A DNA stretch of 64,000 nt, from the NCBI GenBank assembly GCA_016204695.1, contig JACQKD010000014.1:88170-152169 (forward strand), written 5' to 3'. Origin of the DNA: Candidatus Kaiserbacteria bacterium (GTDB lineage Bacteria; Patescibacteriota; Minisyncoccia; Phycocordibacterales; UBA918). The translations under genes were made by a program, and so were the position numbers. Shown here in pieces: positions 12,994 through 40,113 of the stretch. The first letter of the stretch is position 1, and each line of letters begins with the position of its first letter. The notes under the pieces were generated by a model. It searched no databases and was not told the origin of the DNA. It saw nothing but the letters and a program-made list of their open reading frames with translations.

Positions 12994-13002
12994 CACACCA
13001 TC

Positions 13003-13606: not shown

Positions 13607-13608
13607 AC

Positions 13609-14115: not shown

Positions 14116-14197
14116 TAGATCTAGAAATAGAACGCCCGACTTGCTATAATCTACCCGTCACATCCTCACACTATGTCCATAGGTGAGGCCGTTATCT

Positions 14198-16837
14198 ATG
14201 TCCGAGAAAAAACAAATGCAGAAAAAAACCGTGGGGAAAACAGCGAAGGAAGAAATCGTCATCAAGGGTGCGCGGACGCATAACTTGAAGAATATTTCTT
14301 TGACCTTGCCGCGAGGCGCGATGATTGCGTTCACGGGGCTTTCGGGGTCGGGGAAGTCGTCGCTTGCGTTCGATACGATTTTCGCGGAAGGACAGCGGCG
14401 GTATGTCGAGTCGCTTTCGACATATGCGCGGCAGTTTTTGCGGCAGATGCAGAAGCCGGATGTGGACGAAATCAGCGGACTTTCTCCAGCTATTTCTATT
14501 GACCAGAAGTCTGCTTCACGCAACCCGCGCTCGACGGTCGCGACCATCACCGAGATATACGACTACCTCCGCATTCTCTATGCGCGCGTCGGCCAGCCGT
14601 ATTGCCTCGGCGTGGATGTGCCTATTCAAAAGCTCTCGCAGGACGAAATTCTGCGGATTATTCTCGAATCCATAGAGAAACGAGAGGTTAAAAAAGCACA
14701 AAAGGATGAGCAAAAGGTCATGGGCGTGCCGGTTTCCTCGGAGCGCCTTGCCATCTTCGCCCCGGTCATCGTCGGCAGAAAAGGCGAATACTACCAGCTT
14801 CTCTACGACCTCCTCGGCAAAGGATACGAGACAGTGAAGATAGATGGGGAGATCAAACAGCTTCGCGAGCGTATCACACTCGCGAAGACCAAGCGTCACG
14901 ACATCGACGTGCTCGTGGATGAGATATATGTGAGCGAATTCCGTGACGACCCGAAGGGCGCGCGCGAGCGGCTTTCGGAGGCGATCGAGTACGCGCTCAA
15001 GGAATCGTCGGGGCTCATCAAGGTGCAAAGTCCGGACGGGAGCGAGCGCACTCTCTCGGCAAAATTCATCTGCCCCTCCGATGGCTCGTCGTTCCCCGAA
15101 GTCGAGCCGCGGCTCTTTTCATTCAACTCGCCATACGGCGCCTGCCCGGAATGCAACGGCCTCGGCACCGTCGGTATCTTCCACAGCGACCTTTGCCCAG
15201 CATGTCTCGGCGCGCGGCTTCGTCCGGAAGCGTTGCGCGTATACCTCACCGACGGCACGAAAGGCTCGCTCGGAAAAAGCATTGTAGACTTCACCGCCAT
15301 GACAATTCGCGAAGCGTACCAGTTCGTCGAAGACATCAAGCTTTCCAAAAAACAACAGGAAATCGCCTGGCCCGCGCTCCGCGAGATTATCGACCGACTG
15401 CAATTCATGATAGATGTCGGCATCGAATATCTCACGCTCGACCGCCGCGCCAACACGCTCTCCGGCGGCGAGGCACAGCGCATCCGGCTCGCTTCCCAGC
15501 TCGGCTCGGGACTCGTCGGCGCGCTCTATGTGCTCGACGAGCCGACCATCGGCCTCCATCAGCGCGACAACGACCGCCTCATCAAGACGCTCACCAACCT
15601 GCGCGACCTCGGCAACACCATTCTCGTCGTCGAACACGACGAGGACACCGTGCTTGCATCCGACTATCTCGTGGACATTGGCCCGGGCGCGGGCGTACAC
15701 GGCGGTAATGTCGTCGTCGACGGCTGGCTCGAAGAATTGCTCAACGCGAAGAAAAATACCTCCGGCTCGGTGACGCTCGACTATCTGCGCGGCGACCGCG
15801 TCATTCCTCTGCCGGAAAAGCGCAGAGAAGGAGAAAAGGGCTCAATCAAAATCCACGGCGGCAAGGCGTTCAATATCAAAAATATGCATGTGGACATCCC
15901 GCTCGGCCGCCTCATCGCGCTCACGGGAGTATCCGGCTCGGGAAAGTCCACCTTCATGTATGAAATCCTCTATCGCAACCTGCGCTCGCGCCTCGAACGG
16001 AAATACCGCACGCCGCACACATACAATGCCGCATCATTCACCGGGAGCGAGTACCTCGGTCGCGCGGTCATGATCGACCAGTCGCCCATCGGCCGCACCC
16101 CACGCTCCAACCCGGCCACATACACCGGCGCGTTCACCCACATCCGCGACTTGTTCGCCGCCGCAACAGAAGCCCGCGCGCGCGGCTGGAAGCCCGGACG
16201 GTTTTCATTCAATGTCAAAGGCGGGCGGTGCGAAGCATGCCAAGGCAACGGAGAGATTGCCGTCGAGATGCACTTCCTCCCGACCGTGTATGTCACCTGC
16301 GATGTCTGCGACGGCAAGCGATTCACCAAAGAGACGCTTGAAGTCATGTACAAAGGCAAAAATATCGACGAGGTGCTCCATATGACTATTGAAGAGGCTC
16401 TTGATTTTTTCAATGACATTCCGGCGGTGTACGACCGTCTGCGCACACTCATGGATGTGGGGCTCGGGTACCTTGAGCTCGGCCAGAGTGCGACCACGCT
16501 CTCCGGCGGCGAAGCACAGCGCGTGAAGATTTCCGCCGAGCTCTACCGCCGCCATACCGAGAAGACGATGTACCTGCTCGACGAGCCCACCATCGGCCTG
16601 CATTACGAAGACGTGAAAAAATTGATAGAGATTTTGCAAGAACTCGTCAACCGCGGCAACACCGTGATGGTCATCGAGCACAATCTCGACTTCATTAAAT
16701 CCGCCGACTATGTCATAGACATCGGCCCCGAAGGCGGCGAGAAGGGAGGCGAGCTCATCGCCAAAGGCACCCCGGAGGAAGTCGCTAAAAGCCAACACTC
16801 GTATACTGGGAAGTATTTGAAGAAAGTGTTGAGATAA
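14198..16837 (+). CDS. uvrA: Excinuclease ABC subunit A
   Basis: Two ABC ATPase modules (GLSGSGKSSLAFDT; GVSGSGKSTFMYE; two LSGGEAQR signatures), zinc fingers CPSC/CPEC and CEAC/CDVCDG. Track ORF begins at GTG 14183; the ATG at 14198 has an upstream GGTGAGG. Confidence 0.95.
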   Translation: MSEKKQMQKKTVGKTAKEEIVIKGARTHNLKNISLTLPRGAMIAFTGLSGSGKSSLAFDTIFAEGQRRYVESLSTYARQFLRQMQKPDVDEISGLSPAISIDQKSASRNPRSTVATITEIYDYLRILYARVGQPYCLGVDVPIQKLSQDEILRIILESIEKREVKKAQKDEQKVMGVPVSSERLAIFAPVIVGRKGEYYQLLYDLLGKGYETVKIDGEIKQLRERITLAKTKRHDIDVLVDEIYVSEFRDDPKGARERLSEAIEYALKESSGLIKVQSPDGSERTLSAKFICPSDGSSFPEVEPRLFSFNSPYGACPECNGLGTVGIFHSDLCPACLGARLRPEALRVYLTDGTKGSLGKSIVDFTAMTIREAYQFVEDIKLSKKQQEIAWPALREIIDRLQFMIDVGIEYLTLDRRANTLSGGEAQRIRLASQLGSGLVGALYVLDEPTIGLHQRDNDRLIKTLTNLRDLGNTILVVEHDEDTVLASDYLVDIGPGAGVHGGNVVVDGWLEELLNAKKNTSGSVTLDYLRGDRVIPLPEKRREGEKGSIKIHGGKAFNIKNMHVDIPLGRLIALTGVSGSGKSTFMYEILYRNLRSRLERKYRTPHTYNAASFTGSEYLGRAVMIDQSPIGRTPRSNPATYTGAFTHIRDLFAAATEARARGWKPGRFSFNVKGGRCEACQGNGEIAVEMHFLPTVYVTCDVCDGKRFTKETLEVMYKGKNIDEVLHMTIEEALDFFNDIPAVYDRLRTLMDVGLGYLELGQSATTLSGGEAQRVKISAELYRRHTEKTMYLLDEPTIGLHYEDVKKLIEILQELVNRGNTVMVIEHNLDFIKSADYVIDIGPEGGEKGGELIAKGTPEEVAKSQHSYTGKYLKKVLR

Positions 16838-17085: not shown

Positions 17086-18339
17086 GTGCTAGAAATTAGA
17101 GACAAAATAATGACAAGTCAAGACTTACAAAAACTCAAATTGCCGGATGCGCCGGGCGTGTATTTCTTTTTGGGGAAGCGCAAGAAGATACTATATATCG
17201 GTAAGGCGACATCTCTGCGCTCACGGGTGCGGAGTTATTTTGCGGACGACATTCTAGAAAAACGAAGTGCGCTCATCGAGCAGATGGTCGCGGAGGCCGA
17301 AACGGTTGAGTGGACGGAAACAGACTCGGTACTTGAGGCGCTCATTCTTGAGGCAAATCTCATCCGCACGCACAAGCCGCGATACAACACGATTGCGAAA
17401 GACGACAAGACGTTCAACCACCTCGTGATTACCAACGAAGAGTATCCGCGCGTGCTCGTCGTGCGCGGCAAAGACCTCACCGAACGCTTTACAACAAAAG
17501 AAATCAAATACATCTTCGGCCCGTTTCCGAGCGGCATGCTCTTCCGCGAGGCGCTCGCCATCGTCCGAAAAATTTTCAAATTTTACGACACCGAGCGGCC
17601 AATCGGAGAAATCAAGACAAAGATGGGGAAGGGGACGATAGATTTCAATCGGCAAATCGGCCTCTATCCATCCGTGCAGTCCAAGCGGGAATATCAGCGA
17701 ACAATCCAGCACATCCGACTTTTCTTCGAGGGCAAAAAACATCAGCTCATCAAAATTCTCACCAAAGAAATGCGCGAATATGCACGCACACAGGCATTCG
17801 AGAAAGCGGGGGAAATAAAACGAAAGATATTCGCGCTTACCCACATCGAGGATGTCGCGCTCGTGCGGCGCGACATGTATCGCAATCGGGGATCACGCGC
17901 GACGCGCATCGAGGCATATGACATCGCGCACATGAGCGGCAAGGACATGGTCGGCGTGATGACTGTCGTCGAAAATGGGGAAGTGCGGACGAGCGAATAC
18001 CGCAAGTTCAAAATCGGAAGCGTCAAAAGCTCGAACGACCCGGCCGCGCTTCGCGAAGTGCTCGACCGCCGGCTTGCACACGCCGAGTGGCCGATGCCGC
18101 AGATGATTGTCGTCGACGGCGGCCGTGCCCAGAAGAACGCCGCCGAGCTCATTCTCAAAAAATACGGCATCGGCATCCCCGTCGTCGCGGTGACCAAAGA
18201 CGAATACCACCGCCCCAAGCGGCTCCTCGGCACACAAACCCTTATCCGCGAGCACGAAGACTCCATCCTCCTCGCCAACGTCGAATCCCACCGCTTCGCG
18301 ATCGCATACCATAGGCAGAAAAGAGGAAAGTTTGTATAA
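17086..18339 (+). CDS. uvrC: Excinuclease ABC subunit C-like (GIY-YIG nuclease), short form
   Basis: GIY-YIG motif PGVYFFLGKRKKILYIGKATSLRSRVRSYF. At 417 aa it lacks the usual C-terminal HhH region. Confidence 0.7.
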   Translation: MLEIRDKIMTSQDLQKLKLPDAPGVYFFLGKRKKILYIGKATSLRSRVRSYFADDILEKRSALIEQMVAEAETVEWTETDSVLEALILEANLIRTHKPRYNTIAKDDKTFNHLVITNEEYPRVLVVRGKDLTERFTTKEIKYIFGPFPSGMLFREALAIVRKIFKFYDTERPIGEIKTKMGKGTIDFNRQIGLYPSVQSKREYQRTIQHIRLFFEGKKHQLIKILTKEMREYARTQAFEKAGEIKRKIFALTHIEDVALVRRDMYRNRGSRATRIEAYDIAHMSGKDMVGVMTVVENGEVRTSEYRKFKIGSVKSSNDPAALREVLDRRLAHAEWPMPQMIVVDGGRAQKNAAELILKKYGIGIPVVAVTKDEYHRPKRLLGTQTLIREHEDSILLANVESHRFAIAYHRQKRGKFV

Positions 18340-19348
18340 ATTTCAGCACGCAGAGTGGTATAGTATACCTATGCAAAAGTACCGAGTAGCTGTTCTTCGC
18401 GGAGGACCGGGCGAAGAATATGATATTTCGTTGCAGAGCGGCATGGACGTGCTCGCGGCGCTCGACACCGACCGGTACCAGCCGCTTGATGTCGTCATCA
18501 CGCAATCCGGCGAATGGCTCTCGCAGGGCAGAGTGCGCGTGCCGCACGAACTCTTCACCGGCATTGATGCGGTTTTCCTCGCGCTTCACGGCCCATATGG
18601 AGAAAACGGCAGAGTCCAGCGTCTCCTCGACACTCTGCGTGTGCCGTATACCGGCAGTCGAGCGTTCCCCTCGACAATGACCCTCAACAAGGCGCTGGCG
18701 AAAGACCGCCTCGCACGCGCGGGAGTGCGGATGCCGAGACATATGCTTGTCAGTGCCTCCGCACAGCAAAATCTCGCCGGCCTCGCCGATTCCATCAGAG
18801 AGCTTTTCGGGCCGAGATACATTGTAAAGCCGGTAGACGGCAGCTCGTCGGTCGGTATCGCATATGCGGAGAACGCTTCCATCCTTATCACCGCGCTTGC
18901 CCAAGCGCTCGCCGCGCACGAACAGGTGCTTATTGAAGAATATATAGAAGGAAGGGAAGCGACCTGCGGTATCATCGAGCGCTTCCGCGAGCAAGACCGT
19001 TATGCGATCCCGGTGATGGAGATAGCCTCTCCGGACGGAGCGCCCTTCATAGACTGCGACAGCAGACGGAACAACCGGGTGCACGAAATTTGCCCGGCCT
19101 CGTTTTCAAATGCGGAAAAAAGGGAGCTCGAGCGGCTCGCCCGACTCGTGCATGACACGCTTGAGTTGTCGCAGTACTCGCACAGCGACTTCATCGTCGC
19201 GGATGACGGCATGTATTTTATAGAGGCAAATACCCTGCCGCGCCTTACGACAGAGTCGTCCTTACCAAAAGCGCTCACGAGCGTAGGATCTCCCTACAAG
19301 GACTTCATCAATCACCTCGTCGAGGATACATTGGAAAAAAGGAGCTGA
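18332..19348 (+). CDS. ddl: D-alanine--D-alanine ligase family (ATP-grasp) paralogue
   Basis: VLRGGPGEEYDISLQSG..., FLALHGPYGENGRVQRLLDTLRVPYTGS, ATP-grasp C-terminal half. True start may be the ATG at 18371. Confidence 0.75.
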   Translation: MYKFQHAEWYSIPMQKYRVAVLRGGPGEEYDISLQSGMDVLAALDTDRYQPLDVVITQSGEWLSQGRVRVPHELFTGIDAVFLALHGPYGENGRVQRLLDTLRVPYTGSRAFPSTMTLNKALAKDRLARAGVRMPRHMLVSASAQQNLAGLADSIRELFGPRYIVKPVDGSSSVGIAYAENASILITALAQALAAHEQVLIEEYIEGREATCGIIERFREQDRYAIPVMEIASPDGAPFIDCDSRRNNRVHEICPASFSNAEKRELERLARLVHDTLELSQYSHSDFIVADDGMYFIEANTLPRLTTESSLPKALTSVGSPYKDFINHLVEDTLEKRS

Positions 19349-20075: not shown

Positions 20076-20212
20076 AGGATCAGTATACCTTGCGGATACT
20101 TTTCTTCTCCGCCAGCCGGCGGATCGAAAAGATATCTCGCAAGGTCTGCGAACCCCCTGTATCCTACAAAAACATAGTCGCGTGACGCTTCGCGTCCCGC
20201 TCCTTGTTTTTG

Positions 20213-20284
20213 TGGACCCGAGGGGATTCGCACCCCTGACCCCTGCAATGCGAATGCAGTGCTCTACTCCTGAGCTACGGGCCC
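20213..20284 (-). tRNA. tRNA-Ala (anticodon CGC)
   Basis: GGGCCCG TA GCTC AGGAGTA GAGC A CTGCA TTCGCAT TGCAG GGGTC AGGGG TGCGAAT CCCCT CGGGTCC A; G3:U70 present. Confidence 0.9.
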
Positions 20285-20373
20285 GGCAACGCCTCATATG
20301 GTATCCGACAGGACGGGAAAAAGGAAGTTGCTGGCGGCATCTGTCGGTTTTGGCTACAATACACCATGCATCT

Positions 20374-20445
20374 CCTCCCGTCGTTCAACGGATAGGACGC
20401 GAGTTTCCGGAACTCGTAATGTCAGTTCGATTCTGGCCGGGAGGA
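20374..20445 (+). tRNA. tRNA-Arg (anticodon CCG)
   Basis: CCTCCCG TC GTTC AACGGATA GGAC G CGAGT TTCCGGA ACTCG TAAT GTCAG TTCGATT CTGGC CGGGAGG A. Confidence 0.8.
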
Positions 20446-20459
20446 CAAGAGCTTCATTG

Positions 20460-20530
20460 TGGACCTACGGGGAGTCGAACCCCGGCCTCCTCCATGCCAT
20501 GGAGGCGTTATACCGCTTAACTATAGGCCC
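20460..20530 (-). tRNA. tRNA-Ala (anticodon GGC)
   Basis: GGGCCTA TA GTTA AGCGGTA TAAC G CCTCC ATGGCAT GGAGG AGGC CGGGG TTCGACT CCCCG TAGGTCC A; G3:U70. Confidence 0.85.
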
Positions 20531-20570
20531 TCGAGTACGGGTCCGTGGAATTGTCTTCAACTCTACCTGA

Positions 20571-21116
20571 ATGCAATATCTCGCACAAGAACACCGCATG
20601 TTTGCAGAGGAAGCTGTCCACAGGACATACGAAAATACTTCACTTGTATCTTATACTGTGCCTAACGATCAGCATTTTGTGATGAATATCCTCTCATACT
20701 TCGACTTGAATAAGACGGCGGGCGGCTTCCGGGAACTCGGAGGCAGTGCGGCACTGGACTATAAGATGAAAGCCGAGCCGCCAGCCGCTCCGGTACCGGA
20801 AGCGCCGGAGACAGTAAAACCGCAAGCGCGCCCGATGCCCCTCTTTGAACAGCTCGTGCTGTACGCCGGCGTGATCATCGGCGTACTCTTCAGCTCAACA
20901 GTTAGACAATTCCAGGATGGAGCAGTCGCATTGCCAAAACTCGGTTTTGCCTCCGTACTGATTGCGGCGGTCGTGTCGCTGATCATCATCCCCATCGTGT
21001 TCGACAAGCTCAAGGTCAATCCCGACGCGCCGTTTATCATCCGCTTCGGCCTCTTCGTCCAACACGGCGCATTCTGGCACATCCTCCTTGTCGCGATCGG
21101 CAAGGCAATCGTTTGA
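20571..21116 (+). CDS. Hypothetical membrane protein
   Basis: C-terminal TM helices; start uncertain. Confidence 0.35.
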   Translation: MQYLAQEHRMFAEEAVHRTYENTSLVSYTVPNDQHFVMNILSYFDLNKTAGGFRELGGSAALDYKMKAEPPAAPVPEAPETVKPQARPMPLFEQLVLYAGVIIGVLFSSTVRQFQDGAVALPKLGFASVLIAAVVSLIIIPIVFDKLKVNPDAPFIIRFGLFVQHGAFWHILLVAIGKAIV

Positions 21117-21199
21117 ACCGGTACATAACGCCCGGGTAGCAAAGACAGAAAAAATATGTATAGTTGAAGGGAACAAAAGCAGTCCATAGGACTGTTTTT

Positions 21200-21272
21200 G
21201 GGCCCCTAGCTCATCTGGTAGAGCACCGGTTTTGCACTCCGGAGGCGAGCGGTTCGAGTCCGCTGGGGTCCA
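21200..21272 (+). tRNA. tRNA-Ala (anticodon TGC)
   Basis: GGGCCCC TA GCTC ATCTGGT AGAGC A CCGGT TTTGCAC TCCGG AGGCG AGCGG TTCGAGT CCGCT GGGGTCC A; G3:U70. Confidence 0.9.
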
Positions 21273-21292
21273 CATACGGTGTAGGATGTAGG

Positions 21293-25570: not shown

Positions 25571-25697
25571 TTGAAGGGGAGTTCGGAACGGACTCGAAGC
25601 TGTTGCGAGCTAGACTATGAGCGAAGCGAAATAGTATAGCCGCAACGGAGGAGTCGATTACCGCACCCGGGACAGGTCTGTTAAAATGGCAACCTGT

Positions 25698-26690
25698 ATG
25701 AAACTTCTGATTGTGACACATCTTGAGACGAGCAAGAAACCTGCTCCGCACACACCGGGATTGCGTACGCTTACCCGCGTGCAGGTGAAAAAGATCAAGG
25801 CGGTCGCGCCGAAGATGGAGATAATCGTGACCGGAGAGCCGGACGAAATCGAGCGGCATGCCGCCGATGCGAACATCATCGTGACGTCTCCGCGGACGCT
25901 CCCGCCGCTTGCACATGCAACACATCTCACATGGCTTCACTCGCTCTCGGCGGGCGTGGACCGCATCCTGACACCCGAGGTCAAGAAGTCATCGGTCATC
26001 GTCTCAAATTCTTCCGGCGTGCATGCGGTCCCGATTGCAGAGCATGTCATGGCATACCTGCTCATTTTCGCGCGCGGTTTTTTACATTCGCTTGAAAATC
26101 AAAAGCATCGTCTCTGGAAACGGGGCGAAGGCATGACCGAGCTGTATGAGAAGACCGTACTCATCGTCGGCATGGGGAATATCGGGAGCGAAGTCGCGAG
26201 ACGCGCGCATGCATTCGACTGTCATATCATCGCGCTCACGCGAAGCGGAAAGACCGACTCAAAATACGTTCACGAGATACACAAAGCATCGGCGCTTGAG
26301 CGCATGCTGAAGAAAGCCGATTTTGTTGTGAGTTGTCTGCCCGGCACACCGGAGACGCATCACATCTTTGACCGCAAAAAATTCGGCCTTATGAAGCCGA
26401 GCGCGTACTTCATCAACATCGGCCGCGGTTCGCTCGTGCATGAAAAAGACCTCATCGCCGCGCTCAAGAAAAAGCTCATCGCGGGCGCCGCGCTCGATGT
26501 CGCCGAGACCGAGCCGCTTCCCGCAGAAAGCCCGCTCTGGAACATGCAAAATGTCATCATCACTCCACACCATTCCGGCGCCTCCGAACGATACATGGAC
26601 CGCGCCATCGACCGCTTCGTGCTCAATCTCAAAGCATACCTGCGGAAGAAACCCCTCCCGAATCTCGTAGACAAAACCTTGGGGTACTGA
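25698..26690 (+). CDS. D-isomer-specific 2-hydroxyacid dehydrogenase (NAD-binding)
   Basis: GMGNIGSEVARRA (GxGxxG), INIGRGSLV, ALDVAETEP, ITPHHSG. Confidence 0.8.
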   Translation: MKLLIVTHLETSKKPAPHTPGLRTLTRVQVKKIKAVAPKMEIIVTGEPDEIERHAADANIIVTSPRTLPPLAHATHLTWLHSLSAGVDRILTPEVKKSSVIVSNSSGVHAVPIAEHVMAYLLIFARGFLHSLENQKHRLWKRGEGMTELYEKTVLIVGMGNIGSEVARRAHAFDCHIIALTRSGKTDSKYVHEIHKASALERMLKKADFVVSCLPGTPETHHIFDRKKFGLMKPSAYFINIGRGSLVHEKDLIAALKKKLIAGAALDVAETEPLPAESPLWNMQNVIITPHHSGASERYMDRAIDRFVLNLKAYLRKKPLPNLVDKTLGY

Positions 26691-26705
26691 CATAGTATCA
26701 GTGCG

Positions 26706-27455
26706 ATGCAGGTAATTATCCAAAACCTCGCAACCGAATATCTGGACGAGGGAAGCGGTACGGCCGTGCTGTTTTTGCACGGGTGGATGGACAGTCTGCA
26801 TACGTTTGATGCGCTTGCGGCGCTCTTGCCTCCGACACACAGGATTATTCGGCTCGACCTGCCGGGATTCGGCAAGACTGAACGGCCGAAGGAAGCATGG
26901 GGCCTCGACGAGTATGTGCGCTTTGTCGACAATTTTATCAAGAAGCTCGGCGTCGAAGTCGACACGTTCGTCGGACACTCGTTCGGCGGACGAGTCATCC
27001 TAAAGGGAGCGGCGGAAAACATCTTCCATGCGGACAAGCTCGTGCTCATCGGTTCCGCAGGGATTGCCAAACGGAACACTCCTCGCCATTTGTTTTTCAA
27101 CATCATTGCAAAGCTCGGAAAGGTTGCGACAGCCATACCGCCGTTGAGCTTTTGGAAAGAAAAAATACGCAGGCGGTTTTATACGCGCATCGGGAGCGAC
27201 TATGCGGATGCCGGAGCACTGCAGGAGACATTTTTGAAAACCATTTCGGAGGATTTGAGCGAAAGTGCACAAAAGATAGACACCCCGACGCTCCTCATAT
27301 GGGGAAAAAATGACACCGCCACACCGCTCTCCGACGGCGAGCGGCTGGCTCGGCTCATCCCGCGAGCACAGCTCGAAGCGCTCGACGGCGGACATTTCAT
27401 CCACCGTGAAAGGCCGGAGGAAGTCGTGGCATTCATACGAAATTTCATATGCTGA
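26706..27455 (+). CDS. Alpha/beta-fold hydrolase
   Basis: FLHGWMDS, nucleophile elbow GHSFGG, catalytic His near the C-terminus (DGGHF). Confidence 0.75.
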   Translation: MQVIIQNLATEYLDEGSGTAVLFLHGWMDSLHTFDALAALLPPTHRIIRLDLPGFGKTERPKEAWGLDEYVRFVDNFIKKLGVEVDTFVGHSFGGRVILKGAAENIFHADKLVLIGSAGIAKRNTPRHLFFNIIAKLGKVATAIPPLSFWKEKIRRRFYTRIGSDYADAGALQETFLKTISEDLSESAQKIDTPTLLIWGKNDTATPLSDGERLARLIPRAQLEALDGGHFIHRERPEEVVAFIRNFIC

Positions 27456-28882
27456 AACACCGACTCGCCAATTTCTTTTCGCAATACCGCCTCGACTATC
27501 CGCGCTCACTCATCTATATTCTGCAAGCGAGCGAGTACGACATCGGCGAGTATCTCACGTGGTACCGCCAGACGCAGGACTTCAGGCGCGTCGAGCGTCG
27601 CAAGCGGTTGGTCTACACGCCGAAGGCGGTCTGCCTGCTTGTCCTATGCTGGCTGTTGGCGGTTATGTTGCTCGGCGGAACGATGATGTTTTCCATCACA
27701 AGAGGATGGTATGTTCTGCCCATCGTCCTGTTACTGCTTCCCGTCATCCTTGCGTATGGCATACTCATCCCTCTGGTACTCGCGAAGTTTCTCATTCAGA
27801 AACCCGCCGAATTTTTTGTCATACGCAATGCGCGCACGCGGCTTGCGTCGCATAAAGCCGTGAAGGTTAGTATCGCGGGAAGTTTCGGCAAGACAACCAT
27901 GCGCGAAATACTCAAAACGGTTGTAGCGGAAGGAAAGAAAGTCGCCGCGCCGCCGCACAGCTATAACACGCCGCTCGGCATCAGCCGCTTCATACAGACG
28001 CTCAACGGAAACGAGGAGGTGCTCATCTTTGAACTGGGAGAACACTATCCGGGCGACATCAAAAAACTCTGCGACCTCGTGCGCCCCGATATCGGCGTCA
28101 TAACGGGCGTGAACGAAGCGCACCTCGAAAAATTCAAAACGCTTGAGCGGACGACCGCGACTATTTTTGAACTCGCCGACTACCTCGGCGAAAAGCGTAT
28201 GTATGTCAACGGAGAAAGCGAGCGTGCCCGCGGCGCTTTGCGCCGCGGGCACATCACCTACGACCGCACACAGGTCGGCCAGTGGCAGATCCACCATCCG
28301 CACACCGGCCTCGACGGTACGGCATTTACGATGATAAAAGACGACACGAAGATGGAATTGCACTCATCGCTCCTCGGTCTTCACCAGATCGGCCCGCTTG
28401 CCGCCGCCGCAGACATCGCGCTCTCGCTCGGACTTTCACCCGAACAGGTAAAAAGCGGCATCGCCAACACAAAGCCATTCGACCACCGTCTTGAGCCGAA
28501 AACGGACACGAGCGGAGTCGTCACCCTCGACGACAGCTACAACGGCAATCCCGACGGGGTAAAAGCGGTCATCGAATTTCTCACATCACTCGAAGGCCAC
28601 CGCCGATGGTACGTCACTCCGGGACTCGTGGAAATGGGTCCGAAAACGGAACAGGTGCACCGCGAGATCGGCAGACGGCTTGCCGAGGCGGAAATAGAAC
28701 ATGTCATCCTCGTACGCAATTCAGTCACTCCGTTTATTGCGGAAGGTCTGAAATCAGCGCACTATGCAGGCAAGGTTATGTGGTTTGACGATGCGCTTGC
28801 CGCATTCGCCGCGCTCCCGCATTTGACAGTGCGCGGGGATGTGGTACTTCTGCAAAATGATTGGCCTGATCAGTACCGGTGA
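27449..28882 (+). CDS. murF: UDP-N-acetylmuramoyl-tripeptide--D-alanyl-D-alanine ligase (MurF-like Mur ligase) with N-terminal TM extension
   Basis: VSIAGSFGKTTMREIL (Mur ligase P-loop), DSYNGNPD; two N-terminal TM helices. Confidence 0.8.
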   Translation: MLKHRLANFFSQYRLDYPRSLIYILQASEYDIGEYLTWYRQTQDFRRVERRKRLVYTPKAVCLLVLCWLLAVMLLGGTMMFSITRGWYVLPIVLLLLPVILAYGILIPLVLAKFLIQKPAEFFVIRNARTRLASHKAVKVSIAGSFGKTTMREILKTVVAEGKKVAAPPHSYNTPLGISRFIQTLNGNEEVLIFELGEHYPGDIKKLCDLVRPDIGVITGVNEAHLEKFKTLERTTATIFELADYLGEKRMYVNGESERARGALRRGHITYDRTQVGQWQIHHPHTGLDGTAFTMIKDDTKMELHSSLLGLHQIGPLAAAADIALSLGLSPEQVKSGIANTKPFDHRLEPKTDTSGVVTLDDSYNGNPDGVKAVIEFLTSLEGHRRWYVTPGLVEMGPKTEQVHREIGRRLAEAEIEHVILVRNSVTPFIAEGLKSAHYAGKVMWFDDALAAFAALPHLTVRGDVVLLQNDWPDQYR

Positions 28883-28888
28883 TTTAGA

Positions 28889-30064
28889 ATGGAATATATG
28901 AAAACCGTCGCGGTATTTTTCGGGGGCAGAAGTTCAGAGCATGATGTCTCCATCATCACCGCGCACACGCCCATCATCGAATCACTCCTCGCGACCGGAG
29001 AATACGATGTATGGCCGGTCTATATCGCAAAAGACGGCTCGTGGTACGCCGACAAAGCGATGAACAACATCGCCTATTTCAAACAGGACGGTTGGGAAAC
29101 AAAAATCGCCGCGCAGAAAAAAGTACAGATACTCTTCGACAACGGCCTCACGCTCGTCTGGCCGGGACTCATGCAAAAAACGGTTCGTATGGACATCGCA
29201 TTTCCGGCAATGCATGGCACCTACGGCGAGGACGGCAGTTTGATGGGACTTCTGCGCATGGCGAATGTGCCGTTTGTCGGATGCGATATCTTTGCGTCCG
29301 CCGTCGCGATGGACAAGGCACTCACCAAGCAAGTACTCGCCGCCGAAGGCGTCCCTATTGTGCCGTTCGTGTGGTTTACCAAGCACGACTGGGAGCAGAA
29401 TACAGACGAGCTGAAAGAAAAAATAGTACGACTCCGTTGGCCTCTTTTTGTGAAGCCGGTACACCTCGGCTCCAGCATCGCAATCGCGAAAGTCAAAGAC
29501 GAACCCCAGCTTGAAAACGCGATTGAGGTCGCACTCCATTACGATGACAAAGTACTCGTCGAGGAAAGTGTGGAAAACCTCATCGAAGTGACGCTCCCCA
29601 TCATGGGCAACGACGAACCGCGACCGGCGGGAATTGAGCGGCCGTTCAACAAAGCCGAGTTTTATGATTTCAATGACAAATATCTCTCCGGCAACAAAAC
29701 AGGCGGGGGAGTCAACAGCCAGTACAGCGAGATACCGGCACAGATTGACGCGGAGCTGGCGAAACAAGTGGAAGATTTCGGCACGCGGACATACCGCGTC
29801 CTCGGATGCACCGGCATTGCGCGCGTGGATTTCCTCATAGAAAGCGAACGGAAGCAGGTGTACGTCAACGAAGTCAACACGCTCCCGGGCAGTCTCTACG
29901 CCCACAATTGGAAAACCGTCGGCATATCGAGCGTGGAGCTCGTACAAAAATTGGTCGCATTCGCGGAAGAACGTTTTGCCGCACATCAGAACCTCACCTA
30001 CACCTTTGATTCGGATATTCTCAAAAAGGCGGGTATTCCAAAAAGTCCGGGAGGCACCGCGTAA
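28889..30064 (+). CDS. ddl: D-alanine--D-alanine ligase
   Basis: AFPAMHGTYGEDGSLMGLLRMANVPFVGCDIFASAVAMDKALTK; ATP-grasp C-terminal region. Confidence 0.85.
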   Translation: MEYMKTVAVFFGGRSSEHDVSIITAHTPIIESLLATGEYDVWPVYIAKDGSWYADKAMNNIAYFKQDGWETKIAAQKKVQILFDNGLTLVWPGLMQKTVRMDIAFPAMHGTYGEDGSLMGLLRMANVPFVGCDIFASAVAMDKALTKQVLAAEGVPIVPFVWFTKHDWEQNTDELKEKIVRLRWPLFVKPVHLGSSIAIAKVKDEPQLENAIEVALHYDDKVLVEESVENLIEVTLPIMGNDEPRPAGIERPFNKAEFYDFNDKYLSGNKTGGGVNSQYSEIPAQIDAELAKQVEDFGTRTYRVLGCTGIARVDFLIESERKQVYVNEVNTLPGSLYAHNWKTVGISSVELVQKLVAFAEERFAAHQNLTYTFDSDILKKAGIPKSPGGTA

Positions 30065-30121: not shown

Positions 30122-30388
30122 ATGGAACATATGCAAAACAAAACGAGCATCATCGCGATCGGCGCGGCAATTGTGGTCATTCTCATCGCCGCGCTTTCAT
30201 ATTGGTACTGGCAGGGTGTTCGAGAAGCGCCGCCTCCGGCCGAGCCGGCAGACACTTCATCGTCGCAGACAGCTTCGACGACACCGTCCGTAGCGCCGCC
30301 GTCGGCGAATCCGCTCGACGAAGTGACGCCCATAGCAAATCCCATTGAAAAAACTAACCCGTTCGACTATGAAAACCCGTTTGAATAG
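30122..30388 (+). CDS. Small membrane-anchored Pro/Ser/Thr-rich protein
   Basis: TM helice IIAIGAAIVVILIAALSYWYW followed by a low-complexity tail. Confidence 0.35.
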   Translation: MEHMQNKTSIIAIGAAIVVILIAALSYWYWQGVREAPPPAEPADTSSSQTASTTPSVAPPSANPLDEVTPIANPIEKTNPFDYENPFE

Positions 30389-32111
30389 CGCCGTGGCTAC
30401 GATGGCGTCCCTCGCCATCTCCGCCATCCTCATCACCGCCGCATACGCACAATCACCCGACGATATCATCTATCCCATCGGAGCGTTGGGGAATTGCGAG
30501 AGCAAAGAGGCGTGTCGGGCATATTGCGACATCGCCGAACATCATGCGGCATGCCAAGCATTTGCTGAAAAACATAATCTTGATGACGAGTCGGGCGACA
30601 AATTCGATATGGCGGTGAAAGACGGCGGACCGGGCGGATGTGCCGCAGGCGCCGCCGACCCGCGCGATGCGTGCCGGCAGTATTGCGATTCCATGGATCA
30701 CATGCGGGAATGTGTCGCATATGCGGAGTCGCACGATCTGATGGACGAAACGGAGCTTGCGGAAGCCCACCGCGTCATTGCCGCACTTGACCGGGGCGCG
30801 ACGCTTCCGCCCGGTTGCACCAATGAGGAGCGCTGTCACGAGCTTTGCGAAGCGCCCCCGGATGTGGCAACTGCGCGGCAGTGTTTCGCGTTTGCCGAAG
30901 CCGCCGGACTCCTGCCTCCGGACGTTGATCGGGAAAAGGCGGAGATGATGTTCAAGGCGATCGAAGAGGGCAGAGCGCCGTTTAAGACACCCAAGGAATT
31001 CGAACAATGCGAAAATCCGTCGAGCGACGAAATCATGCAAAAGTGCATCGACTTCGGCCTTGAGAACGGCTTTCTTTCGGACGAAGAAGCGGAAATGGTG
31101 AAGAAGACCGGCGGCAAAGGGCCGGGCGGCTGTCGCGGCAAAGAGCAGTGCGAGGCGTACTGCAGTACGCACCAAGACGAGTGTTTTGCATTCGGCGTCG
31201 AGCACGGCATGATCAAGCCGGAGGATAGGGAAATGATGAAGGAGGGTATCCATCGTTTCAAAGAGGGTTTCGCAAAGGCTCCGCCGGAAGTGAAAGAATG
31301 TCTTGAGGAAAGCCTGGGCGCGGACACGCTTGATCAGATGCTCTCCGGAGCGACTATGCCGACCGAAGAACTCGGACAAAAAATGCGTGCGTGTTTCGAA
31401 AACCATTTCGGGGAAGAGGGCGGCATGATGGAAGGAGAGGGCGCAAAGGGCGGCATGTCCGGCAAGCAATTCCCTCCCGAAGTGAAAGCGTGCCTCGAAT
31501 CAAAAATCGGCGCGGAAGGAGTGAAAAAAATGCTTGAAGATGGTCCCGATCCGTCACTCGAAAGCGCGATGAAAGGATGCTTCCAAGGAATGATGCAGAA
31601 CAAACAGGGAGAAGAAAGGTACGACGATAAGGAAGCATCATCACAGGGATTCCAAGGAGAATTCAAGGGTCCCGGCGGATGCACCGATCCCGAAGAGTGT
31701 AAGCGCTACTGCGCCGAACATCCGGAAGCATGCGGTATGAAGCGCGATGCGACAGGTTTTCCGGCCGGCGCCAATCCGGAAGAAATAGAACAGATGATGC
31801 GCGAAAAGATGATGCAGGAAGGCCGCGAGCAATATATGCAAGAGAATGAGGGACAGTTTCCCGGAGAAATGAACCCTGAAGACAGGGAACGAATGATGGA
31901 AGAAAAATATGAAGAGATGGAACGAGACGACAATATGTCCGAGAACTTCCACGAGGAAAATGAAGATCCGGGAACATACGACAGGCCGGCGGAAGAGCCG
32001 CAAGAACACACCGAACCGTCCGAACCGGCACCGACAAGTCGTCTCCCGCAAATCGGCGGAAGCAGTCTGATCGCGAACGTCGTCTCGATCCTGCTCGCCT
32101 TGCTGTGGTAA
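30369..32111 (+). CDS. Secreted cysteine-rich repeat protein with acidic C-terminal region and terminal hydrophobic anchor
   Basis: Signal peptide MASLAISAILITAAYAQ; about seven repeats of the form G(G/N)C-x4-C-x2-YC-x6-C-x2-FA-x3-(H/G)GL; C-terminus LPQIGGSSLIANVVSILLALLW. Confidence 0.6.
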   Translation: MKTRLNSAVATMASLAISAILITAAYAQSPDDIIYPIGALGNCESKEACRAYCDIAEHHAACQAFAEKHNLDDESGDKFDMAVKDGGPGGCAAGAADPRDACRQYCDSMDHMRECVAYAESHDLMDETELAEAHRVIAALDRGATLPPGCTNEERCHELCEAPPDVATARQCFAFAEAAGLLPPDVDREKAEMMFKAIEEGRAPFKTPKEFEQCENPSSDEIMQKCIDFGLENGFLSDEEAEMVKKTGGKGPGGCRGKEQCEAYCSTHQDECFAFGVEHGMIKPEDREMMKEGIHRFKEGFAKAPPEVKECLEESLGADTLDQMLSGATMPTEELGQKMRACFENHFGEEGGMMEGEGAKGGMSGKQFPPEVKACLESKIGAEGVKKMLEDGPDPSLESAMKGCFQGMMQNKQGEERYDDKEASSQGFQGEFKGPGGCTDPEECKRYCAEHPEACGMKRDATGFPAGANPEEIEQMMREKMMQEGREQYMQENEGQFPGEMNPEDRERMMEEKYEEMERDDNMSENFHEENEDPGTYDRPAEEPQEHTEPSEPAPTSRLPQIGGSSLIANVVSILLALLW

Positions 32112-32157: not shown

Positions 32158-32229
32158 CGGGCTATAGTGTAGCGGCAACATGCATGCATGGGGTGCATGA
32201 GACGCTGGGTTCGACTCCCAGTAGCCCGA
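32158..32229 (+). tRNA. tRNA-Pro (anticodon GGG)
   Basis: CGGGCTA TA GTGT AGCGGCA ACAT G CATGC ATGGGGT GCATG AGACG CTGGG TTCGACT CCCAG TAGCCCG A. Confidence 0.8.
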
Positions 32230-32261
32230 CAATGGAGCTTTTGGCGGAATTGTCGGGCTGA

Positions 32262-32658: not shown

Positions 32659-32729
32659 CGGGGCGTAGTACAGTGGCAGTATACACGCTTCGGGTGCGTG
32701 AGACCCGAGTTCGATTCTCGGCGCCCCGA
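32659..32729 (+). tRNA. tRNA-Pro (anticodon CGG)
   Basis: CGGGGCG TA GTAC AGTGGCA GTAT A CACGC TTCGGGT GCGTG AGAC CCGAG TTCGATT CTCGG CGCCCCG A. Flanked by an 11-nt inverted repeat CTTCACATTGT/ACAATGTGAAG. Confidence 0.85.
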
Positions 32730-32790
32730 CAATGTGAAGAACCGAGTGTCTGGGAGACACTCGTGGCTCCGTAGATGGTAATCATAGTAT

Positions 32791-35720: not shown

Positions 35721-36926
35721 ATGATATTCGTCTCAAAAATACGGCTCTACATGAACTGCTTGGCGTATGGCGCCGCACTATGCGTCCTGCTCGCGGTACC
35801 GTTGGCCGCATCGGCGCATCTTGATCCTGCGGAAGGCGCGAAGATATACGAGGTGTCGGTCGCCTTGACCGGTGCGTCCATCGTCGACGATGACAATTTC
35901 TTCGGACCGGCAAAACTGCTTTTCGAATACTTCGTCACGCCGACGGATCCCAAACACGACGATGGCACGGGAATCACAAGCAACCCCATTACCATTAACA
36001 GCGGCGAGTCGGTCACATTTGACCCGATCGAAATCTACTCGCACGAACAGTGCGGATGCGCGCAAGATTTCAAATTCCAAATCTTTCTGAAAGACCATTC
36101 ACCGCTTTTCTCCGCGGCAAAAAATGTCGTCCGAGCCGGAGCAAATATTGCTGGCGGATTCGCTGTCGGCGGGCCGGTCGGAGCGACCATATCGGCCGCC
36201 GGTGAGGCGGTGGGCGCCATTACCGACTACGGCATGGGTATGGGCGGCACTGACAAAGAAAAAGCGGCACGGGAGCGTGATCGGTTGCGGCGCGAGTCCA
36301 AAAGTATTGGACGAGTATTTGAGAAGGTCAGTACCAATTGCGACCCCGCAGAGGAAACATTCACTTCCGCCGCAATGGACGGAGAAACACAAAACGGCAC
36401 GCTGACATACCGCATCGAGAAGCATGCGACCGACCGCGCATGCGTCGACGAACCGGTCACCGACGGAGTTCCTCCGGACGAACCGGAGGAAGACGACAGA
36501 CCGCAGTGCATCCTCGAAACGGGGAAGGTGCTCATCGACGGCGAATATTACTGCCCGCAAAGTGCCGTACCGGTCGGTATGAGCTGTGGTTGCCGCGCGG
36601 GATACGAGTGGGCGTATCTCGACAACAAATGTGAGGGGTGTACTCGTGTGAAAAATGATTACTGTCTCGATGCCGTACGCGCCACCATCGAGGACGGCAC
36701 GGGCCAGCTTGAGCCGGAGCTCACACTCGAAGGAGAAAACATGATCAAGTGGACATGGGGACCGATGTCGTGCAAAGCGCAGGGCGCGGTGCTCTTTGAT
36801 ACCGCACATATTCTCCCGGGAGAGACATTCAAACATCGCGAGTACTGCACCAATCTCGAATTCGTCCGCGGCGACCCCACAGGAAGTGACTCCTGCGGCC
36901 TGACATTCCTCTGGAAGTACAAATAG
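35721..36926 (+). CDS. Secreted hypothetical protein with Cys-rich C-terminal region
   Basis: Signal peptide ...LCVLLAVPLAASA; C-terminal cysteine cluster. Confidence 0.5.
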   Translation: MIFVSKIRLYMNCLAYGAALCVLLAVPLAASAHLDPAEGAKIYEVSVALTGASIVDDDNFFGPAKLLFEYFVTPTDPKHDDGTGITSNPITINSGESVTFDPIEIYSHEQCGCAQDFKFQIFLKDHSPLFSAAKNVVRAGANIAGGFAVGGPVGATISAAGEAVGAITDYGMGMGGTDKEKAARERDRLRRESKSIGRVFEKVSTNCDPAEETFTSAAMDGETQNGTLTYRIEKHATDRACVDEPVTDGVPPDEPEEDDRPQCILETGKVLIDGEYYCPQSAVPVGMSCGCRAGYEWAYLDNKCEGCTRVKNDYCLDAVRATIEDGTGQLEPELTLEGENMIKWTWGPMSCKAQGAVLFDTAHILPGETFKHREYCTNLEFVRGDPTGSDSCGLTFLWKYK

Positions 36927-38382: not shown

Positions 38383-40113
38383 ATGCCTTTGCGACTTGAG
38401 CGGCTCCTCCCATACGCGCTTCCCGTATTGCTCGTCATGCTCTATATCATCCTGCTCTCCGGCGGTATCAATCTCGTGACCGCCGACCTCGGCAGGCATA
38501 TCGCGAACGGCCGGCTTTTCCTCGAGACGTGGCAGACGATAGACACCAACACCTATTCCTACACGCATCCGGACTTCCCGGTCGCCAATCATCACTGGCT
38601 CTCCGGCGTCCTTTTCTATCTCACGTTCATTGTCGGAGGATTCGCGGGAACACACCTCATGTTCATCCTCGTGAGCGCCGCGGCATTTCTCATTTTTTTC
38701 CGTATCGCATGGAAAAAGGGCGGACTTCCGCTTGCGAGTGTCTTCGCACTCCTCCTCTTGCCCATCATCGCCGAGCGCACCGAAGTCCGGCCCGAGGCAT
38801 TCAGCTATCTGCTCGCGGGCGTATATTTCTTTCTGCTCCTTAGGCATCGCGAAGGGCGACTCTCTGCGAAAGCGCTTGCGATAACACTCGGCATTCTGCA
38901 AGTCCTCTGGGTCAATCTCCATATCTATTTTTTCGTCGGCTGGGTATTGGTCGGAACATTCCTGCTTGAAGACATCGTCATGCGCGGCAGGCGGCACGCA
39001 TCAACCAAAACGCTCGCGCTCTGTTTCGGCATCGTGCTTGCCGCAGTATTCGTCAATCCGTTTACGCTCGAAGGCGCGCTCGCGCCGTTTACCATTTTCA
39101 ATGAATACGGCTATCGGCTCGTCGAGAACCAGTCGGTGTGGTTCCTCCGGAGCATACTCAACCGTCCAAACCTGCTTTATTTTGAAATCGTTTCAGCCGC
39201 GCTCGTCGGAAGTTTCATACTCGTCTTCATCCGTGAGAAGCGAATACTTGGAGCTTCGCAAGAGGTTGTCGACAGTTTCGACCGAATGGTGAGAAGCCGT
39301 GGGACGGCTTCGCAAGACCTTTTGAGATATTTCCGAAGCGAAGCGAACGGAAATAGCCAAAAGGTATACAGTTCCTGTAAGGAAGAAACTGTCATACAAC
39401 CTGAACAGCGCCGGTACGGCGAGAACATACGTATTGTGGAGCTAATTTTAGGTCTCGGATTCGGCGTGGCCGCGGCGCTCGCCCTGCGCAACTTCACCAT
39501 CTTCGGCCTTTTCGCACTACCGCTCTTCGCCGAAAATGTCGCACACGCATTTCCATCCATAAAAACGTCCGCTTCGCGAACCGCCGAGTGGATGCTCGCC
39601 GGAGTTATCGCCGTCATCGTCCTTTTGTTCGTCACCGGCGAGATGCGCAAGGCGTATGCGTATCCGCCGCACGCACTCGGCCTCTTGCCGGGCAACGAGC
39701 GCTCTGCGGAATTTTTTCTCGCGCACGATCTCAAGGGACCGATATTCAACAACTACGACATCGGCGGGTATCTCATCCACTACCTCTATCCGCACGAACG
39801 TGTGTTCGTCGACAACCGCCCCGAAGCATACCCTGCGGAATTTTTCCGGAACGTATATATTCCGATGCAGGAAAATGAAACTGTCTGGAACGAACAGGAC
39901 GCAACGCATCACTTCAACACCATCTTCTTCTCGTACCATGACTACACGCCGTGGGCTCAGCAATTTTTGGTCGCACGGATCAACGACCCCGACTGGGCGC
40001 CGGTGTACGCCGACAATTTCGTCATCATTTTTCTCAAGCGGAACGAGCAAAATACTGCTATCATCAGTGAGTTTGAAATCCCGCGCGAGCGGTTCAGGAT
40101 GACGCCGTCATGA
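38383..40113 (+). CDS. Large polytopic membrane protein (GT-C-like glycosyltransferase candidate) carrying an in-frame repeat insertion
   Basis: About twelve TM helices. A cytoplasmic-loop segment at 39233-39421 is repeat copy 2. Confidence 0.5.
   Translation: MPLRLERLLPYALPVLLVMLYIILLSGGINLVTADLGRHIANGRLFLETWQTIDTNTYSYTHPDFPVANHHWLSGVLFYLTFIVGGFAGTHLMFILVSAAAFLIFFRIAWKKGGLPLASVFALLLLPIIAERTEVRPEAFSYLLAGVYFFLLLRHREGRLSAKALAITLGILQVLWVNLHIYFFVGWVLVGTFLLEDIVMRGRRHASTKTLALCFGIVLAAVFVNPFTLEGALAPFTIFNEYGYRLVENQSVWFLRSILNRPNLLYFEIVSAALVGSFILVFIREKRILGASQEVVDSFDRMVRSRGTASQDLLRYFRSEANGNSQKVYSSCKEETVIQPEQRRYGENIRIVELILGLGFGVAAALALRNFTIFGLFALPLFAENVAHAFPSIKTSASRTAEWMLAGVIAVIVLLFVTGEMRKAYAYPPHALGLLPGNERSAEFFLAHDLKGPIFNNYDIGGYLIHYLYPHERVFVDNRPEAYPAEFFRNVYIPMQENETVWNEQDATHHFNTIFFSYHDYTPWAQQFLVARINDPDWAPVYADNFVIIFLKRNEQNTAIISEFEIPRERFRMTPS
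39233..39421 (+). repeat. Structured palindromic repeat family, copy 2 (composite, in frame inside the membrane protein gene)
   Basis: GTGAGAAGCGAATACTTGGAGCTTCGCAAGA (31 nt identical to copy 1), internal partial duplication GAGAAGCCGTGGGACGGCTTCGCAAGAC, hairpin CCTTTTGAGATATTTCCG...CGGAAATAGCCAAAAGG, and 3' module CAGCGCCGGTACGGCG. Confidence 0.75.

Follow-up and report, generated by a model that had tools for sequence, protein, structure and literature searches.

A new cysteine-rich helical-repeat protein of Parcubacteria and its small membrane partner with a C-terminal NPF tail

Within a stretch of 64,000 nucleotides (nt) from a Candidatus Kaiserbacteria genome (contig JACQKD010000014.1; hereafter the window, by which we mean the whole 64-kb stretch), we studied a plus-strand gene at 30369-32111 that encodes a cysteine-rich helical-repeat protein of 580 amino acids (aa), together with a small plus-strand gene at 30122-30388 that lies directly upstream and overlaps it. 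These two genes are a real and uncharacterised envelope module, and their pairing is universal at testable loci. The larger protein is composed of a repeat that is new, as is its predicted fold, to judge from profile and structure comparisons, and the smaller one is a single-pass membrane protein that ends in a free tail with Asn-Pro-Phe (NPF) motifs. We propose, with a probability of about one half, that the cysteine-rich protein is a non-enzymatic helical scaffold, stapled by disulfides and located on the outside of the membrane. The free NPF tail of the partner would dock on this scaffold.

A conserved gene pair

The small gene was absent from the original prediction for this DNA, a note that a model had made from the sequence without database searches; it is new in this analysis and easy to miss. 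Its product, delimited by public gene calls and by the comparison of loci, has 88 aa, and the gene overlaps the cysteine-rich gene by 20 nt. The protein has a short N-terminus, one transmembrane helix (IIAIGAAIVVILIAALSYWYW), a linker rich in Pro, Ser and Thr, and the tail ...ANPIEKTNPFDYENPFE-COOH, so that its C-terminal end reads ...KTNPFDYENPFE-COOH. It has no match in Pfam or NCBIfam, and a word-indexed search with the 88-aa sequence returned a single relative; the family was recovered from the DNA of related loci.

To survey the neighbours, we clustered the open reading frames (ORFs) of 84 loci all against all. The partner is found directly upstream of the cysteine-rich gene in 83 of the 84 loci (79 by BLAST and 4 by motif), and the lone locus without it (L023) is cut by the contig end 220 nt before the main gene. 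No other neighbour is conserved, the next most frequent family occurring at 7 of the 84 loci. The gaps between the two genes mostly range from -50 to +85 nt, and the genes usually overlap; a scan for promoters and terminators around the pair gave nothing above shuffled expectation. The tail of the partner is strongly constrained, with the consensus NP[VIL]xK[TA]NPF-x3-5-NPF and the last NPF situated 0-2 residues from the C-terminus in every case (76/76). The net-charge difference across the transmembrane helix points to an N-in/C-out orientation in 54 loci versus 11, which would place the tail on the outside.

Distribution and conservation of the family

The 580-aa product is 100% identical to the NCBI entry 'hypothetical protein HY416_04310 [Candidatus Kaiserbacteria bacterium]', whose NCBI lineage includes the Patescibacteria group and the Parcubacteria group. 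A word-indexed search returned more than 1,300 homologues of ~500-680 aa, every one of them unnamed or 'hypothetical', and those with a named source came from Kaiser-, Yonath- and Wolfebacteria and the 'Patescibacteria group'. HMMER, run exhaustively against 1.84 billion representatives, matched 1,989 clusters at 50% identity when the limit was E<=1e-3 and 1,167 when it was E<=1e-30; few of these matches are weak, so the repeat is hardly found outside the family. A word-indexed search with the profile of a single unit yielded 9 matches, all of them short N-terminal fragments from this same family, and is uninformative on other architectures. When one genome per species was searched for the pattern TGGKGPG[GDN]C, 310 loci matched. 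Among the 80 of these that were listed are Kaiser-, Yonath-, Taylor-, Nomura-, Wolfe-, Jorgensen-, Harrison-, Colwell-, Niyogi-, Lipton-, Wildermuth-, Sung-, Lloyd- and Nealsonbacteria as well as Paceibacterota and Minisyncoccia, and other listed loci carry labels that are generic or probably mis-binned. The family is conserved across Parcubacteria, and each named member belongs to Parcubacteria or Patescibacteria.

In an alignment of 107 full-length members, all cysteines as far as C342 are invariant or almost invariant, and the loop K246-T247-G-G-K250-G-P-G-G-C255 is conserved. Cys, Gly, Pro and hydrophobic residues make up most of the invariant and near-invariant positions, and the alignment contains no conserved Ser, His or Asp. 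The core retains 40-60% identity between different candidate phyla. The protein from the window belongs to this family by full-length homology, by the invariant cysteine pattern, by the TGGKGPGGC loop and by the NPF partner upstream. One subfamily (L047, L052, L055, L056, L076 and L081, with main ORFs of 740-1020 aa, and P0106) carries an extra N-terminal domain of ~150 aa, and some of its members (P0106, L055, L076 and L081) end in a C-terminal Laminin_G_3 (ConA-like lectin) domain. The partner's tail co-varies with the subfamily of the main protein, since partners in the extra-domain/lectin subfamily end in ...NPLR and not in ...NPFE. One locus of this subfamily, L056, holds two small genes of the NPF type (912-1145 and 2333-2704).

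The lectin domain, together with the long, variable and low-complexity linker of these proteins, could also be read as the signature of a secreted or surface adhesin, or of an effector, used for host-cell attachment or manipulation, with the small upstream gene encoding an unrelated, co-transcribed membrane protein. Such a role would suit an extracytoplasmic repeat protein in members of the candidate phyla radiation (CPR), a lineage thought to be largely (epi)symbiotic (bioRxiv 10.1101/335083). We nevertheless assign it a low probability: a core with this level of identity across candidate phyla, and with invariant cysteines and many invariant loop residues, is too conserved for host interaction, each examined locus has one copy without local paralogue arrays, and the NPF gene, universally paired with the main gene and often translationally overlapping it, points to a function that the two share. 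For a scaffold that docks the partner's tail, the lectin-bearing subfamily, with Laminin_G_3 on the same scaffold, suggests a role at the surface and a capacity to display binding modules.

Anatomy of the cysteine-rich protein

The reading frame, as given in the original prediction, is borne out by its reading from the ATG at 30369 to the stop codon at 32109-32111 (included in the coordinates), by the starts of the homologues and by public gene calls. A TTG at 30345 is also in frame; homologues and public gene calls prefer the ATG. The sequence, the identical NCBI protein and an AlphaFold model together define a product with 26 cysteines, which starts with what appears to be a Sec-type signal peptide (residues 1-27, 30369-30449) consisting of MKTR, a hydrophobic core and AYA followed by QS. 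AlphaFold places a helix at residues 3-24, the leader MKTRLNS lacks a twin arginine, and a hydrophobic N-terminal segment is common to 107 of 107 aligned homologues. By the -3/-1 rule, cleavage would occur between AYA and QS. Hence the claim that the protein is secreted holds in the form of a signal-peptide-like N-terminus.

To delimit the repeats, we used a hidden Markov model (HMM) of the unit, built from 400 homologue units with the query protein excluded. The consensus unit is ~54 aa long and comprises three helices, gkgPGgC-x5-C-x2-YC-x8-C-x2-FAeehGl followed by the third helix, which can be condensed to the motif C-x5-C-x3-C-x8-C and then xxFAExxGL. Five full units, one half unit and two modules of a different type, which we call PPEV modules, account for all the cysteines of the protein (5x4 + 2 + 2x2 = 26). 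Unit 1 occupies residues 39-76 (30483-30596; C43, C49, C53 and C62; E 1.6e-16), and its four cysteines are invariant in the 107 homologues. Units 2 and 3, whose conservation is likewise seen in the alignment, deviate in one spacing each: unit 2 (residues 87-143, 30627-30797; C91, C102, C106 and C115; E 2.5e-16) has a C1-C2 spacing of 10, and unit 3 (residues 146-201, 30804-30971; C150, C156, C160 and C172; E 1.2e-11) has a C3-C4 spacing of 11. They are followed by the half unit (residues 211-249, 30999-31115; HMM match at 221-249, E 5.2e-7), which has only C214 and C226, at a spacing of 11, both of them invariant in the alignment, and which leads into the near-invariant loop KKTGGKGPGGC. Unit 4 (residues 249-300, 31113-31268; C255, C261, C265 and C272) is the best conserved of all (E 1.9e-23).

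The two PPEV modules come next, at residues 302-348 (31272-31412; C311 and C342) and residues 366-410 (31464-31598; C375 and C404), and share the pattern PPEVxxC-x28-30-CF at residues 305-343 and 369-405. The first, recognised by regular expression and alignment, is predicted to be helical with a predicted local distance difference test (pLDDT) score above 90; the second is defined by sequence, AlphaFold and hhalign. We considered whether the PPEV modules are diverged four-cysteine units, which was rejected at an hhalign probability of 0.3%; residues 338-360 give a faint match to the unit HMM (E 2.3e-3). The last unit, unit 5 (residues 432-460, 31662-31748; C438, C444, C448 and C455; HMM match at 432-481, E 5.5e-11), lacks the third helix. 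The repeats are real and well beyond chance, as the E values between 1e-11 and 2e-23 attest. The original prediction had described about seven of them, of ~35 aa and with four cysteines each; the repeats themselves stand, but their number is five plus a half unit and two PPEV modules, the unit is longer and made of three helices, and four cysteines are found in the five full units only, the half unit and the PPEV modules having two each.

Behind the last unit lies an acidic, Met-rich, low-complexity linker (residues 461-555, 31749-32033), delimited by its composition and by the model. Its 95 aa include 30 Asp or Glu, 8 Lys or Arg and 10 Met, with a net charge of -22, and EEMERDDNMSENFHEENED begins within it at residue 515, in agreement with the Glu/Met-rich acidic tail noted before. 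AlphaFold predicts helices at 470-492 and 503-527 with pLDDT of ~80, and confidence falls below 50 over residues 527-565. In the relatives, the linker is instead rich in Pro, Gln and Gly, with a median length of 113 aa and a median Met fraction of 0.05. The protein terminates in PTSRLPQIGG and a 16-residue hydrophobic helix (residues 556-580, 32034-32108; AlphaFold helix 567-579). The final residues 559-580, LPQIGGSSLIANVVSILLALLW, contain the LPQIGG and the hydrophobic end as they had been described.

A repeat and a predicted fold without known counterparts

The claim that the repeat is not a described domain was upheld by each of the comparisons that we made. For the main protein, the sole Pfam matches at E<=10 were to DotY, Mnt and a defensin-like model, all of them sub-threshold, and NCBIfam returned no family at the same limit. 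Sequence-profile searches of the PDB, with alignments of the full-length protein and of the unit, gave nothing below E 0.29. An AlphaFold model computed with the 107 homologues has a mean pLDDT of 80.9, exceeding 90 for residues 31-350, and consists of 25 helices and no strands. Compared with the PDB by Foldseek, this model had a best E of 0.59 at template modelling (TM) scores of at most 0.16, the matches being generic PPR/TPR solenoids; against BFVD, nothing was obtained at E<=0.001, the best E being 0.059 with a TM score of ~0.1. The profile comparison and structure prediction of one repeat, which the original prediction had put forward as a check, gave a three-helix model (helices 10-19, 21-30 and 36-51) with a pLDDT of 87 for unit 4, no match to a known domain, and not a single Foldseek match in the PDB at E<=10. 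By these sequence and model comparisons, the repeat and its predicted fold are new. The literature that we searched contained no description of the family. Méheust et al. reported 20 families enriched in Parcubacteria, mostly hypothetical and membrane-associated, which were left undescribed (PMC6744442).

Cysteine pairs

We collected statistics on the cysteines of 1,174 units from 201 family proteins. All four cysteines are present in 1,065 of the 1,174 units. A further 97 recurrent degenerate (half) units keep C4, and also C3 in the 18 where the alignment extends far enough; on direct inspection, two cysteines are seen in 110 half units. An odd number of cysteines occurs in one fully aligned unit only (CCCx). 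The spacing between C2 and C3 is 3 in every one of the 1,065 complete units, while the spacings between C1 and C2 fall into the classes 5, 10 and 4 and those between C3 and C4 into the classes 8, 6 and 11. For the half unit of the protein studied here, the unit HMM places C226 on C4, and both half-unit cysteines align to C3 and C4 in 18 relatives. Its C-x11-C ('CENPSSDEIMQKC') fits the x11 class of C3-C4 loops, exemplified by 'CEAPPDVATARQC' in unit 3, and its pattern 'CE.P......C' matches the C3-C4 loop of that unit. In the single-unit model, C3 (residue 17) and C4 (residue 24) are about equidistant from the turn between helices 1 and 2, and C1 (residue 7) lies one short loop ahead of C2 (residue 13).

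From the paired loss of cysteines and the helix geometry of the model, we infer two local disulfides per unit, C1-C2 and C3-C4, which would amount to 13 in the whole protein. The total of 26 cysteines, which is even, and the invariance or near-invariance of those as far as C342 agree with this. The original prediction had offered disulfides or metal sites; disulfides appear to be the better option. Pairs are favoured over tetrahedral sites because the half unit and the PPEV modules keep two cysteines each.

The metal alternative would have the repeats bind Zn, Cu or iron-sulfur (Fe-S) clusters and serve as an extracellular metal store, a metallochaperone or a redox wire, with the Met-rich tail adding Cu(I) sites. 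Four invariant cysteines per unit and the 10 Met in the 95-aa linker of this protein speak for it, as does the general consideration that the organisms of this lineage are mostly anaerobes, in which disulfides are less expected. However, we consider it unlikely. The two cysteines that the half unit keeps are invariant, the PPEV modules have two each, the main protein has no CxxC or CxxCH motif, and there is no conserved His. A Sec-type leader without twin arginine makes a pre-loaded cofactor improbable, and the richness in Met is not conserved, as the Pro/Gln/Gly-rich linkers of the relatives show. The spacing C-x5-C-x3-C-x8-C, the persistence of two-cysteine units and the missing twin arginine likewise separate the protein from Fe-S and Cys4 proteins. 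CPR bacteria, moreover, encode MdbA-like oxidoreductases, often beside VKOR (PMC6744442; bioRxiv 10.1101/335083), which weighs on the side of disulfides.

The C-terminus and the question of sortase attachment

The C-terminus had been compared to a sortase-type sorting signal that lacks the LPxTG threonine and the basic tail. The two deficiencies are as described (the motif reads LPQIG, and the tail of 16-20 uncharged residues ends in ...LLALLW without any Lys or Arg), but the resemblance to a sorting signal does not hold in the family. At the position of LPQIGG, the closest relatives have LPKIPG, LPWVAG, LPLVPG or LPKIKG, and the motif differs even among relatives at 58-67% identity, so that its conservation among homologues, proposed as a check, was not found. 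Within the last 45 residues, LPxT[GASN] occurs in 0 of 201 family proteins and any LPxx[GA] in 10 of 201, inside Pro-rich tails. An uncharged run of at least 18 residues at the C-terminus is present in 16 of 201. Most relatives end in an amphipathic helix of 12-16 residues, charged ones among them, such as LLGNVLEAFRQLFNLK or NNLLSNVIQALGSLLR, and a large minority lack a hydrophobic end altogether; on the Kyte-Doolittle (KD) scale, the tail reaches KD>=0.8 in 89 of 201, leaving about half of the relatives without a hydrophobic tail. The terminal residue is R in 69 of 201 relatives, at most a single one, and P[TS]S[FWLRYI] is found in 54 of 201; no C-terminal motif is conserved family-wide.

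If LPQIGG were a degenerate LPXTG signal, the protein would be a sortase substrate attached covalently to peptidoglycan. The LP-x-x-G followed by a 16-residue hydrophobic stretch at the end of this one protein fits such a scheme, the genes for peptidoglycan precursors just upstream (MurF-like and Ddl) would suit it, and sortases do occur in CPR bacteria, although patchily outside Microgenomates, Parcubacteria included (PMC6744442). Yet the threonine and the basic tail are missing, the Gram_pos_anchor and LPXTG-anchor models have no match (Pfam at E<=10; zero NCBIfam families), sorting models of the PEP-CTERM, GlyGly-CTERM and PGF-CTERM type have none in NCBIfam at E<=10, the MurF/Ddl neighbourhood is not kept at other loci, and a search for a sortase found none among the ~50 scanned ORFs of the window. 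Sortase attachment is unsupported because the motif is not conserved, because the tails of the relatives are amphipathic or absent, and because no sortase was found in the scanned ORFs; the lack of conservation already largely refutes it, and we consider it very improbable. The tail of the protein studied here, with its 20 uncharged residues and its predicted helix 567-579, does appear hydrophobic enough to sit in or on a membrane.

A possible mode of action

In the scaffold model that we prefer, the 580-aa protein would be exported by the Sec pathway and its signal peptide removed, and outside the cytoplasmic membrane it would adopt an all-alpha fold in which three-helix units form an elongated array. 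C1-C2 and C3-C4 would staple every unit, and the half unit and the PPEV modules would bring the total to the 13 putative disulfides, probably introduced by an oxidation system of the MdbA/VKOR type such as CPR bacteria encode. The flexible acidic linker of ~95 aa and the short hydrophobic C-terminal helix may hold the protein at the membrane surface. The partner, presumably co-transcribed and translationally overlapping, would expose its NPF-x3-5-NPF tail, with a free C-terminus, to the same side of the membrane. The helical array would most likely dock this tail in the role of a scaffold or receptor without enzymatic activity, by a logic like that of peptide-tail recognition by TPR-type proteins. 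Tethering through the docked NPF tail could then be common to the whole family, with the C-terminal helix as an additional tether in this protein.

Several observations weigh against this model. No MdbA, Dsb or VKOR gene was found among the scanned ORFs of the window. A hydrophobic helix at the C-terminus cannot be the tether throughout the family, because many relatives lack it or have an amphipathic one. Lys plus Arg counts are equal on the two sides of the partner's transmembrane helix (1.86 vs 1.96), and because these counts are balanced the topology is drawn from net charge only. Proteins with more cysteine units do not have partners with more NPF motifs, and a scaling of the one with the other was rejected (rho 0.10, p 0.38). 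The wider neighbourhood, finally, offers no functional hint: no conserved wider operon exists among the 84 loci, where the neighbours vary from MurF and Ddl in the window to PriA/def/fmt, ATP synthase or radical SAM genes elsewhere.

A wider extension of the scaffold model is more tentative, possible rather than probable in our estimation: the pair might constitute a lineage-defining envelope system of Parcubacteria/Paceibacteria, in which a disulfide-stapled array of new fold clamps the free NPF tail of a bitopic partner and thereby organises, at the membrane surface, a process central to the cell, for example division, surface display or the biogenesis of the envelope. It would then be the analogue of TPR-EEVD or EH-NPF recognition in a bacterial and extracytoplasmic setting.

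Comparison with known systems

In working principle, the closest systems are the Sel1-like/Hcp solenoids and the helical readers of C-terminal tails, and by the sequence and structure comparisons the protein belongs to neither group. The Helicobacter cysteine-rich (Hcp) proteins (HcpA-E) and other Sel1-like proteins are secreted tandem alpha-helical repeats, with crystal structures for HcpB and HcpC; their unit has ~36 aa, two helices and one disulfide that links neighbouring helices, and the presumed role of the solenoid is ligand binding, not catalysis. Secreted tandem helical repeats with disulfide staples, putative in our case, are the point of likeness: the signal peptide and the all-alpha repeats are seen, and the disulfides are deduced from paired cysteine loss and helix geometry. 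The unit here, however, has ~54 aa, three helices, two probable disulfides and the spacing C-x5-C-x3-C-x8-C, and the conserved NPF-tail partner and the restriction to Parcubacteria are further differences. Neither Sel1 nor TPR families matched in Pfam at E<=10, and no Hcp or Sel1-like repeat structure is among the Foldseek matches in the PDB, whether for the whole model or for the single unit.

The carboxylate clamp of the TPR proteins Hop and CHIP reads EEVD-COOH, and EH domains read NPF motifs. As in those systems, a helical module is paired here with a partner motif at most two residues from a free C-terminus; this is a functional analogy only, since there is no homology in sequence or structure, the setting is extracytoplasmic and bacterial, and the interaction is suggested by gene pairing only. 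The twin CX3C/CX9C proteins (the small Tims and the CHCH domain) are helix-turn-helix structures held by disulfides, and thus resemble our unit as disulfide-stabilised helical hairpins with CX3C spacing on one helix. Here, in contrast, the CX3C is not paired with a second CX3C, the putative bonds are sequential (C1-C2 and C3-C4), and the units are arrayed in tandem in a protein of ~550 aa in a bacterial envelope. In PBP5 and PBP6 of E. coli, a C-terminal amphipathic helix serves as an anchor at the outer face of the cytoplasmic membrane. The low-molecular-weight penicillin-binding proteins share with our family a short C-terminal helix, which is a putative anchor here and resembles theirs in the many relatives that end like LLGNVLEAFRQLFNLK; there is no homology, and a hydrophobic tail is missing in roughly every second relative. 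LPXTG substrates share the signal peptide and an LP motif before a hydrophobic C-terminus with this single protein, but differ in the Thr, the basic tail, the motif (0/201 in the family) and the anchor models, which find no match. Among the cysteine-stapled helical-repeat proteins of the extracytoplasmic space, which are a familiar class, the repeat, the predicted fold and the two-gene arrangement are new.

The cell envelope of Parcubacteria, a vast branch of Bacteria with hardly any cultivated members, is poorly known. The locus gives one uncharacterised family of this branch a concrete anatomy, with a confidently modelled three-helix repeat and two probable disulfides per unit, and it corrects the idea that the main protein is a sortase substrate. 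The universal partner with its strongly constrained C-terminal NPF tail leads to a testable hypothesis of binary interaction, and the TGGKGPGGC loop together with the NPF partner provides a lineage marker. The locus alone answers no long-standing question.

Other features of the window

Just downstream of the cysteine-rich gene are two tRNA-Pro genes on the plus strand, with GGG and CGG, at 32158-32230 and 32659-32730, and a cluster further upstream at 20212-21273, on both strands, comprises tRNA-Ala (CGC, GGC and TGC) and tRNA-Arg (CCG) genes. On the plus strand (25686-30064 and 18332-19348), directly upstream of the gene pair, the window encodes a D-2-hydroxyacid dehydrogenase, an alpha/beta hydrolase, a MurF-like ligase and a Ddl of 391 aa. 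The combination of dehydrogenase and ligase loosely recalls VanH/VanA, although the Ddl passes the cut-off of the D-Ala-D-Ala ligase subfamily; a second Ddl paralogue, of 338 aa, follows UvrC.

Between uvrB (9928-11967) and uvrA (14183-16837) lies an islet of low GC content on the plus strand (12006-14115; 0.43 versus ~0.54) with genes for a Zeta-toxin (12006-12719) and a weak PIN-like ORF (13169-13606). Another stretch of lower GC content carries, on the plus strand, a Fic/DOC protein (60011-60919) that adjoins the R subunit of a type I restriction system of the EcoAI family (60933-63293; 1053 bits). Three further plus-strand ORFs, at 35721-36926, 38383-40113 and 57450-58778 (401, 576 and 442 aa), have hydrophobic N-termini and no match in Pfam or NCBIfam, and may encode further lineage-specific envelope proteins.

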